From a phage: 64,000 nucleotides of DNA. Numbering within the stretch: the stretch's first letter is position 1; every line of letters begins with the position of its first letter. A model generated the notes under the pieces. It saw only the letters and a program-made list of their open reading frames with translations, did not search any database and was not told the origin of the DNA. The translations under genes and the position numbers were made by a program. The stretch lies in sequence record PZ000613.1; one strand, given 5' to 3'. Of this stretch, positions 370 to 3,856 are shown piece after piece.

Positions 370-939
370 TTACTTACAATCACCAACGGACAGGTTGAAC
401 ATCTTACCTAGAGCAATCGTCTCACCTTCCCACGGAAGTTCTGCACCCTTCTCTTCCTCTAAAAGAATAGAGCCGTCGACCAAAAATTTTTCGTAGTCTC
501 GCAGTGCGTCGTCTACTAACTCACTCTTGTGAATCCACGTAATTGTTTCTGTACCATCCTCTTCGATTCGAACATCACGATGCCATTCATCTTTGGAGGT
601 AATGTAATCATGGAGCATTTCATATTCAGCTTCTTCAATCATCTCAATCATTGCACGAGCATAGTCAGGGAGGTGATCATGTTTAGTAGATTCGTATTCA
701 ACTACTTCCAGAGTAGATGGTGCTGATTTAGTTTTAGAATTAGGGCGAGTAGTATGAATCAAATCTAACATGTTTTTGTTCTCCGTAATATTTGGTTTAA
801 GAATACTTCCACTATATAGATCTTGTACAGCCAGTCCTGAAACATTTCCCATAGTCTCTAAATGCTGTAAGCTACAACCAGAGCGACACAGCTGTGAATT
901 GTATTCGTTAAGGTCCATCGCTTTGATTAAATTATTCAT
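370..939 (-). CDS. Hypothetical acidic protein (189 aa)
   Basis: ORF with SD GGGAGAG upstream of ATG; co-oriented with neighbouring minus-strand genes. Confidence 0.55.
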   Translation of the reverse strand: MNNLIKAMDLNEYNSQLCRSGCSLQHLETMGNVSGLAVQDLYSGSILKPNITENKNMLDLIHTTRPNSKTKSAPSTLEVVEYESTKHDHLPDYARAMIEMIEEAEYEMLHDYITSKDEWHRDVRIEEDGTETITWIHKSELVDDALRDYEKFLVDGSILLEEEKGAELPWEGETIALGKMFNLSVGDCK

Positions 940-1186: not shown

Positions 1187-1426
1187 AATTCTTCTCCTCT
1201 GAATAAGAGTATAAAGGGCTAGGCATATCGTCATCAAAGATGACTATCCAACCCGTAAAGGCCTCCTCATACCAACAACCCGTGATCGCTGAAGTAAAGG
1301 GGACTTCATGTTAAGGCACCCTCACGTTAAGGCCATGTCATTAGTCATACTTGATACATCTTGCTATAGAGAAGCAGATGAATAAACAGAAGACTATTAC
1401 TAACCAAAAGATTATTTCCATTAAGG

Positions 1427-1573
1427 CTACCCCATCTCCCGTAAAGCTTTAGTTAGCATTAATACTAAAGAGACTGCTTCTACCCGTTCATCGTCTGGAA
1501 GAGAGGGATTTGATACTTTCTTTAAATTGTTTTCTATTGCAATCTCAATGAACTTTTTAGTGTCCAGATTCAT
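1427..1573 (-). CDS. Small hypothetical protein (about 48 aa)
   Basis: Internal ATG with AAGGA SD; first gene of the leftward block after the divergent region. Confidence 0.3.
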   Translation of the reverse strand: MNLDTKKFIEIAIENNLKKVSNPSLPDDERVEAVSLVLMLTKALREMG

Positions 1574-1716
1574 ACTCATCCTTATATATAAGAGTTTAAA
1601 ATTCTGATTTGACCGAATGGGGCTAGCCGCTCCGCGACGAATTCCTAAAAAGGGGGAGTCCTCATTTAAAAAAGGGTTATTCAGGATGCCTTTAAGCCCA
1701 TTCCCACGTTCCAACC

Positions 1717-2176
1717 TTTCCCCGTGCCTACTCCCCGTAATTATTTCCCCGTGTATACCATCCTATTCATTAACTACCCGTTAAATTAGTTCCCCTTTAG
1801 AGAGTGAGAGAAAGGCCAGCACTGTACAGGCACTACCATAACAGGTCTAATAATACCCATAAGCAATAGCCCACATCCCCCATAGTTTGAATGTAAATAG
1901 TTTCAATAGTTGTTATTATGAGTGCAATAATGATATATGTATTAATTAAGTGGAAAGATTATGTTTGATGTTTATTATATTCTTTTTATTCTTTTCTTTT
2001 TCAGCGTTCTTTTATTCTTTTTCTTTTAACGTTTGATGCTTGAGTAATGCTATTAATAGTTAACTAATTATTTAAGTGGTATATTATTACCGCACTATCT
2101 GGCTATGTTTCCCCGTGGTCTGTTCTGCGGTTGTGTGTTCCCCGTTTGTCCTGGTATGTTGGTCTGCTACCCGTAG
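1717..2176. repeat. Iteron-like array: five T(T/C)CCCCGT copies plus two CTACCCGT, flanking an AT-rich pyrimidine-tract core
   Basis: Octamer copies near 1717, 1731, 1744, 2107 and 2138, and CTACCCGT at 1775 and 2166, all on one strand; AT-rich core 1860-2060 with ttcttttt repeats; no ORFs. Confidence 0.5.
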
Positions 2177-2291
2177 GATTAGTGTTATAAAGTAACAATA
2201 TCCAGTAAGCTGATGCTCTGAGTATGGGAAGTTTAGTAAATTAAATTTCTTTAGTTTTCAGTAAGATGCAAGAAAGTTAGAAAATAAATGG

Positions 2292-2319
2292 TTGACAGTC
2301 TTTTCCTTTATTATATAGT
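2292..2319 (+). promoter_or_regulatory. Sigma70-like early promoter (TTGACA-16-TATAGT)
   Basis: Consensus -35 with near-consensus -10, A/T-rich upstream, about 40 nt before first rightward gene. Confidence 0.55.
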
Positions 2320-2357
2320 CGGTGACAGTTGATTGAATTTATATAAGGGATAAAGAA

Positions 2358-3490: not shown

Positions 3491-3856
3491 ATGCGGTTCA
3501 TTAGATTCGTCGTTAAAATGGTTGTGGGCTTTTTCCTTGTCGTTCTCTTATTGGGTGTTCTCCTATCGTCTATGGGTAGCGTTAAAGCTGCAACCTTTTC
3601 CCCTGATACGGTGGAAGGTTTACAGTGCACCTATTTGATAGAAAACTATTCGACCGGTAAAAAGTCACCTAAGGTTATTATTTTGCATTTAAATGATTTT
3701 GATCAAGTGCATTCATATGATAAAACCATTCAACTGGTAAATGAAACTACCGGTAAACAAATCACGGTCAATCACTTGATGCGCTCATCGTTGACGCTCT
3801 TTGATGAGTCCATGAATGAAATGGCATCCGGTAACGGTCAATGTGTAAATCCATAG
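3491..3856 (+). CDS. Early protein with signal peptide/TM anchor
   Basis: ORF 121 aa, SD AAAGAGG, strongly hydrophobic N-terminus. Confidence 0.65.
   Translation: MRFIRFVVKMVVGFFLVVLLLGVLLSSMGSVKAATFSPDTVEGLQCTYLIENYSTGKKSPKVIILHLNDFDQVHSYDKTIQLVNETTGKQITVNHLMRSSLTLFDESMNEMASGNGQCVNP

Follow-up and report, generated by a model that had tools for sequence, protein, structure and literature searches.

Judged by homology, the region between the leftward and the rightward gene blocks of the phage DNA analysed here (a stretch of 64 kb, hereafter the window) is where the left and right physical ends of a Kuravirus genome adjoin, as in a concatemer or a circularised assembly. This genome terminus and concatemer junction probably carries, in its short C-rich boxes, putative recognition elements for cutting and packaging the DNA. 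A packaging-site role would follow reasonably from the anatomy of the junction. The first-pass annotation had described a divergent control region and had suggested a replication origin, a packaging site or a genome terminus; its terminus or packaging option appears right in substance and the control-region and origin framings partly apt, and as a whole it is partly supported.

In BLAST searches, the window grouped with the 76-78 kb E. coli podophages of the genus Kuravirus (phiEco32 group). The best database matches of the region itself were only 85-91% identical, and by its sequence the source phage is different from phiEco32 and its database relatives. The phiEco32 genome has a 193-bp direct terminal repeat (DTR), which reportedly goes back to Savalia et al. 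2008. The matches to phiEco32 lay at the extreme right end of its record, on the opposite strand, with a second match at the record start. The first 193 nucleotides of that record (EU330206) are identical to the last 193, and the reverse complement of this repeat could be aligned globally with window positions 1625-1817, with identity in 172 of 197 columns and with matches at both ends (AGCCGCT... and ...GAAAGGC(C/T)). Window position 1817 thereby corresponds to phiEco32 nucleotide 1 and position 1625 to nucleotide 193. A second copy of the repeat was searched for across the window and none was found. Because of the homology to the DTR, the matching boundaries and this single copy, the window is best read as a Kuravirus sequence assembled across its genome ends, in which both copies of the repeat have been merged into one.

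The termini of the window phage were placed by homology to its relatives, and their coordinates are listed in Table 1 together with those of the other elements of the junction. From the mapped phiEco32 termini, the L boundary would be the right physical genome end, cut between positions 1624 and 1625, and the R boundary the left physical genome end, cut between 1817 and 1818. The ends of the phiEco32 DTR were mapped experimentally, and nanopore reads of YF01 and a PhageTerm analysis of Paul bear out the length of 193 bp (PMC9965538). The records of Paul and LAMP terminate exactly at the equivalent of 1817|1818, in the case of Paul with PhageTerm support, and the PhageTerm-derived '53-bp DTR' of SU7 stops at the same base. 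The end-to-end match to the phiEco32 DTR and the ends of relatives at the same boundary thus support a genome terminus, the option named last in the first-pass annotation. The mature 5' ends of phiEco32 both begin with AGCC, which fits nicks 5' of AGCC on opposite strands. Both repeat boundaries sit in GGCT^AGC-type sequence, of which only the first is a full palindrome. In PAS59, an annotated repeat_region of 275 bp (1-275) straddles the phiEco32-type boundary rather than ending there; the explanation is either a difference in termini or an overlap in the assembly that was carried into the annotation.

Table 1. Elements of the genome-end junction, in window coordinates
Element	Position	Strand	Sequence or content	Basis or remark
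DTR, homologue of the phiEco32 193-bp direct terminal repeat	1625..1817	-		Alignment; single copy ascribed to assembly collapse
L boundary	1621..1628		Palindrome GGCT^AGCC (= GGCTAGCC)	phiEco32 record ends, 13-relative alignment
R boundary	1814..1821		GGCC^AGCA (phiEco32: GGCT^AGCA)	phiEco32 record ends, 13-relative alignment
DTR box cluster	1718..1781	+	TTCCCCGT 1718, CTCCCCGT 1731, TTCCCCGT 1745, CTACCCGT 1774	
Right-flank box cluster	2109..2174	+	TTCCCCGT 2109, TTCCCCGT 2138, CTACCCGT 2167	
Left-flank boxes	1252..1487	+	CAACCCGT 1249 and 1276, TCTCCCGT 1435, CTACCCGT 1480	
Near-invariant DTR block	1644..1673		CCTAAAAAGGGGGAGTCCTCATTTAAAAAA	Adjoins the L boundary
Right-end non-coding DNA	1818-2357		~540 bp	
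AT-rich core	1891..2090		T-tract repeats 1971-2027	GC scan, conservation profile
Sigma70-type promoter	2292..2319	+	TTGACA-16-TATAGT	Ahead of the rightward block starting at 2358
Block outside the DTR, left-end side	1581..1616		Palindrome CTTATATATAAG, then GTTTAAAATTCTGATTTGACCGA	

The surrounding genes are arranged in the same way. According to the phiEco32 annotation and a 13-genome alignment, left-end genes are found on one side of the junction; on the other come the non-coding DNA of the right end, the early promoter and the homologue of gene 128. The leftward genes (- strand) are homologues of phiEco32 genes 1-6, from the left end of the virion DNA, and the rightward genes correspond to the gene 128 side, at its right end. 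By homology, boundaries and synteny, the region is thus a member of the Kuravirus DTR family. The label 'divergent control region' is apt for the circularised map only; in the virion the two gene blocks lie at opposite ends of a linear molecule. The region does contain one strong sigma70-type promoter. The non-coding gap between the blocks exists, but at ~780 bp (from about 1574/1580 to 2357) it is longer than the 640 bp first given, because the 95-aa ORF reaching 1714 is a TTG-extended reading, the likely start being an ATG with a Shine-Dalgarno sequence at 1573-1579. The promoter at the far end of the gap matches the consensus at 11 of 12 positions and is kept in relatives. The SU7 record annotates the same promoter, and one sigma70 promoter upstream of the homologous gene is described for SU10, as in phiEco32 (SU10 paper).

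Other parts of the junction are conserved as well. The CCTAAAAAGGGGGAGTCCTCATTTAAAAAA block has conservation values of 0.95-1.00 in 13 relatives, is present also in Nieuwekanaalvirus and Suseptimavirus, and corresponds to the stretch of the DTR at nt ~130-170 that has been reported as highly conserved (PMC9965538). On the other side of the L boundary, CTTATATATAAG is a perfect 12-bp palindrome and GTTTAAAATTCTGATTTGACCGA is invariant, both being conserved in three genera; this block may serve as promoter or operator for the left end, or belong to the context of the cut site. The sequence GAATGTAAA at 1889-1897 resembles the gp36 sigma promoter element tAATGTAtA; two alleles occur there among the relatives, and phiEco32 has the other one, ACGTTGATA. 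A terminator scan reported a hairpin-like sequence (CCGTGG-TCTGTT-CTGCGG, 2113-2130) that overlaps the first right-flank box and is conserved within Kuravirus.

The boxes noted in the first pass were all found again, five of one type and two of CTACCCGT, all on the + strand, although the former is correctly written (T/C)TCCCCGT rather than T(T/C)CCCCGT. A third copy of CTACCCGT lies in the left flank. Their excess over chance was also borne out, as (T/C)TCCCCGT occurs seven times in the whole window, both strands counted, against 1.46 copies expected from shuffles; for CTACCCGT the figures are 5 and 0.71. The two box types have the core CCCGT in common, which between 1200 and 2200 is present in 11 copies on the + strand and in none on the - strand. 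With a window-wide mean of 0.41 copies per kb per strand, 11 copies in this interval correspond to a Poisson P of ~1e-12.

Four of the seven noted boxes are located within the DTR and three in the right-end non-coding DNA beyond it, a cos/pac-like layout in which boxes flank the R boundary at distances of 40-96 nt to one side and 295-353 nt to the other. The CCCGT cores of the DTR cluster begin 96, 83, 69 and 40 nt before the R boundary, and the right-flank boxes, whose cores lie at the latter distances inside the unique right end, are spaced by exactly 29 bp. The left-flank boxes are looser and partly inside coding sequence; relatives carry same-strand boxes in the equivalent region.

Several other readings were set aside. 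With Rfam, no match was obtained within 1200-2500 at a permissive threshold, and a known RNA was therefore discarded. A G-quadruplex on the G-rich strand would have loops of 9-25 nt, which are too long, and the 29-bp spacing is unsuited to it. A Rho-utilisation site was rejected as no upstream gene is transcribed on the + strand. Chi-like protection of the ends was also rejected, since direct repeats would place the boxes in opposite orientations relative to the two physical ends.

For the comparison of the boxes, 22 related loci were used, which represent the genera Kuravirus, Nieuwekanaalvirus (Bas89, EP335) and Suseptimavirus (Bas87, Bas88); an IMG/VR scan with a neighbouring protein returned 3 loci. 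CCCGT is absent from the - strand throughout 20 of the 22 loci. In IMGVR_3300045988 two - strand copies are present, both far from the clusters, and the distant GAP52 junction also has - strand copies. Boxes at -40, -69/-70 and -96 to -98 from the R boundary are kept in all three genera, and these distances are fixed despite the change in length of the DTR homologue, which is 193 bp in Kuravirus, 205 bp in Nieuwekanaalvirus and 249 bp in Suseptimavirus. Homologous right-flank clusters of 3-6 boxes are likewise found in the three genera, at a distance from the boundary that varies between phages from +280 to +354. Some genomes have additional boxes (-54, -83 to -86, -112, -129), which share the same lattice of 14.5 bp. 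For this period, the mean cosine was 0.82 for the DTR cluster and 0.86 for the right-flank cluster, values reached by none of 2000 random placements, a statistic that is descriptive rather than a strict test because the genomes are related. A period of 10.5 bp did not fit (mean cosines of -0.17 and -0.15 for the two clusters). In Suseptimavirus, the boxes are of the TACCCAT type (CCCAT) in both flanks as well as in the DTR, as against TCCCCGT in Kuravirus. Such a change in concert across the clusters points to one reader for all of them. No comparable CCCGT array and no repeat between the record ends was found in Cronobacter GAP52 and Salmonella SeKF_80, a result of little weight because the termini of both are unmapped.

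It could be argued that the boxes have no function and are remnants of slippage or of duplication in place, or a compositional accident on a C-rich strand, as the GC skew reaches -0.6 over 1701-1800 and Tandem Repeats Finder reports a weak 15-bp period at 2109-2146. However, their position, strand and lattice are kept across three genera between which BLAST barely aligns the box-bearing region, and the box variant changes together in separate clusters. Box columns are also more conserved than their neighbours, with a value in Kuravirus of 0.92 against 0.78 for the other non-coding columns (permutation p = 0.011; most of the genomes are close relatives, and conservation statistics are therefore not independent). 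We regard an absence of function as very improbable. In the accessible literature, that is, in sources other than Savalia 2008, there was no mention of the one-strand CCCGT lattice or of the second right-end cluster. The lattice is a modest new detail, the terminal repeat itself being already known for this phage group.

The boxes might instead form an operator array, bound by a phage or host transcription regulator of the early promoters at both ends. In favour are the position of the right-flank cluster, 120-180 bp ahead of the strong sigma70 promoter, and that of the DTR, which precedes left-end genes described as having hypothetical sigma70 promoters before them (SU10 paper). However, the boxes overlap neither -35 nor -10 elements, they are oriented oppositely with respect to the direction of transcription at the two ends, and they do not match the known gp36 promoter element, tAATGTAtA (SU10 paper). 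It is the DTR boundary, not the promoter, to which their spacing is tied, and indels located between the right-flank cluster and the DTR shift the distance of this cluster from the boundary. An operator array is therefore an improbable explanation, though a better one than an absence of function.

More can be said for a replication origin, with the AT-rich core as unwinding element and the boxes as iterons for an initiator, or with an origin activated by transcription as in T7. The core was described in the first pass as about 200 bp long with repeated T-tracts, and both features were recovered: GC content is 19-27% over 1900-2100, and the core listed in Table 1 comprises the lowest-GC 200 nucleotides of the entire window (21.5% GC). 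Same-strand repeats lie on both sides of it. Over the whole window, the cumulative GC skew is lowest at 1881, where the genome ends join, and highest near 47.6 kb (47625). In T7, secondary origins are found at the phiOL and phiOR promoters, which adjoin the terminal repeats; phiOL is annotated at nt 405. An origin could moreover coexist with a packaging role. However, the skew minimum coincides with the switch in gene direction at the junction and is therefore non-discriminating. The boxes, of 7-9 bp on a 14.5-bp lattice and without 10.5-bp phasing, differ from classical iterons of 17-22 bp, and an origin does not explain why four of the seven are inside the DTR at fixed distances from the cut site. 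No DnaA box was found between 340 and 6047, even when one mismatch was allowed, and the region lacks an IHF consensus site. Within the core, conserved blocks (1915-1955, 1995-2004 and 2065-2100) surround an indel-rich middle, and this T-tract stretch (1960-2045) is the most indel-variable of the junction; in relatives, units such as TTATTCTTTTCTTTTTCAGCG are duplicated there or swapped for GC-containing segments.

The genes flanking the junction also fail to point to an initiator. None has a match in Pfam, and in PHROG they are of unknown function or bear the unsupported labels ABC transporter, polymerase (one small ORF) or terminase, none of which names an initiator. The terminase label is attached to the ORF at 3491-3856 (+), which has a hydrophobic N-terminal segment, and the ABC transporter label to the ORF at 370-939 (-), both without Pfam support. 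The BASEL records carry the same two labels, which look like propagated mis-annotations.

An origin with iterons, as first suggested, is therefore upheld in its adjacent AT-rich region and not in iteron length, helical phasing, DnaA boxes or initiator gene, and we consider it unlikely as an explanation of the boxes. The AT-rich core and the skew minimum may nevertheless leave room for a transcription-linked origin nearby. In GAP52, a non-coding junction of 2.4 kb has DnaA boxes on both strands, four perfect ones (TTATCCACA) on one and a single one on the other, an arrangement that suggests an origin linked to the host DnaA; nothing similar to this array is present in the window.

We therefore return to the genome terminus and concatemer junction with boxes for cutting and packaging. 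In this proposal, the (T/C)T(C/A)CCCGT boxes would be bound by the phage DNA-maturation machinery, most likely by the candidate small terminase, whose gene immediately precedes that of the large terminase, or by an accessory protein. The large terminase gene of phiEco32 starts at nt 2240, ~2 kb from the DTR (nt 1-193), and the gene upstream of it is annotated in YF01 as putative small terminase. Its product, which in phiEco32 is gp6, gave no sequence match in Pfam, NCBIfam or PDB, and its putative small terminase role is assigned from gene position and the annotation of one record. Between the three genera, the identity of the candidate over residues 1-140 is 91-99%, in agreement with the conserved core of the boxes; at this level of identity, co-variation of the protein with the box variant gives no resolution.

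In the classical scheme for T7, staggered nicks are followed by fill-in from the recessed 3' ends, which duplicates the repeat. By analogy, the machinery bound in one orientation would nick two GGCT^AGC-type sites, 193 bp apart and on opposite strands, leaving 5' overhangs and recessed 3' ends from which a polymerase would fill in and duplicate the repeat. With all boxes facing one way, packaging would acquire a direction; by analogy with other phages, it would begin at the end with the terminase genes. The right end with the early promoter would then be packaged last and be ejected, and so enter the cell, first. This fits the assignment of the right-end genes of SU10 and phiEco32 to the early class (SU10 paper). 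The right-flank cluster is less clearly tied to cutting, as it lies ~300 bp from the nearest cut site and at a distance that varies (+280 to +354).

More speculatively, the CCC(G/A)T lattice of 14.5 bp, anchored 40 nt from the cut, could be a device by which terminases that produce exact DTRs find and measure their two nick sites. An oriented filament or ring on the boxes would place the nuclease at GGCT^AGCC, and the matching cluster ~300 bp upstream would be a signal for the termination of packaging. We put this forward tentatively, as a possibility that the present data make less likely than not to be correct. If it were true, the generation of short terminal repeats could be studied in Kuravirus as a tractable model.

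For annotation, these results mean that the window was assembled through the genome ends, and that what had appeared as a divergent control region consists of two termini and a collapsed repeat. Coordinates, genome length and gene order should follow those of phiEco32. Kuraviruses are in use in phage therapy collections, and a strand-specific, conserved lattice of boxes at one cut site provides concrete sequences for mutation and binding tests. As this phage group was already known to have the terminal repeat, the advance is incremental.

Among known systems, the DTR of phiEco32 shares with the region its homologous sequence, the length of 193 bp, the boundaries, the neighbouring genes and the invariant block at nt ~130-170. 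The R sites of lambda cosB and the hexamers of P1 pac (four and three around the cut) are terminase sites built of repeated boxes. As in the region analysed here, several short boxes lie to both sides of the position that is cut, near the terminase genes. However, lambda and P1 yield cohesive ends or package by headfuls, whereas an exact DTR is found here, and the IHF consensus site is absent from the junction. The boxes also lack GATC, unlike those of P1 pac, and a Dam control of the P1 type is therefore not expected.

In the way it would work, the box array comes closest to the concatemer junction of T7. This junction reportedly consists of the terminal repetition and flanking arrays of short repeats, a description ascribed to Dunn & Studier 1983. 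T7 has 11 copies of CCTAAAG, on one strand only, three in the terminal repeat and eight in the flank, on a lattice of ~13 bp; to our knowledge, the role of these boxes is not firmly established. Both junctions have a short exact DTR (160 bp in T7 and 193 bp here) and a 7-bp box confined to one strand, which recurs inside the repeat (in T7 with three copies, close to the left genome end) and again in the flank. In both, the strand bias is 11 to 0, a pattern that is common to the three genera compared here. The lattices are similar (~13 bp in T7, 14.5 bp here), and promoters and AT-rich DNA lie beside the arrays. In T7, a pause of the phage polymerase at the concatemer junction triggers maturation. 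The phiEco32-like phages use the host RNA polymerase with a phage sigma factor (SU10 paper), and this pause thus has no obvious counterpart in them. The boxes themselves, CCTAAAG in T7 and TCCCCGT here, are unrelated, as are the two phage families, and from this comparison the resemblance is one of design and not of descent.
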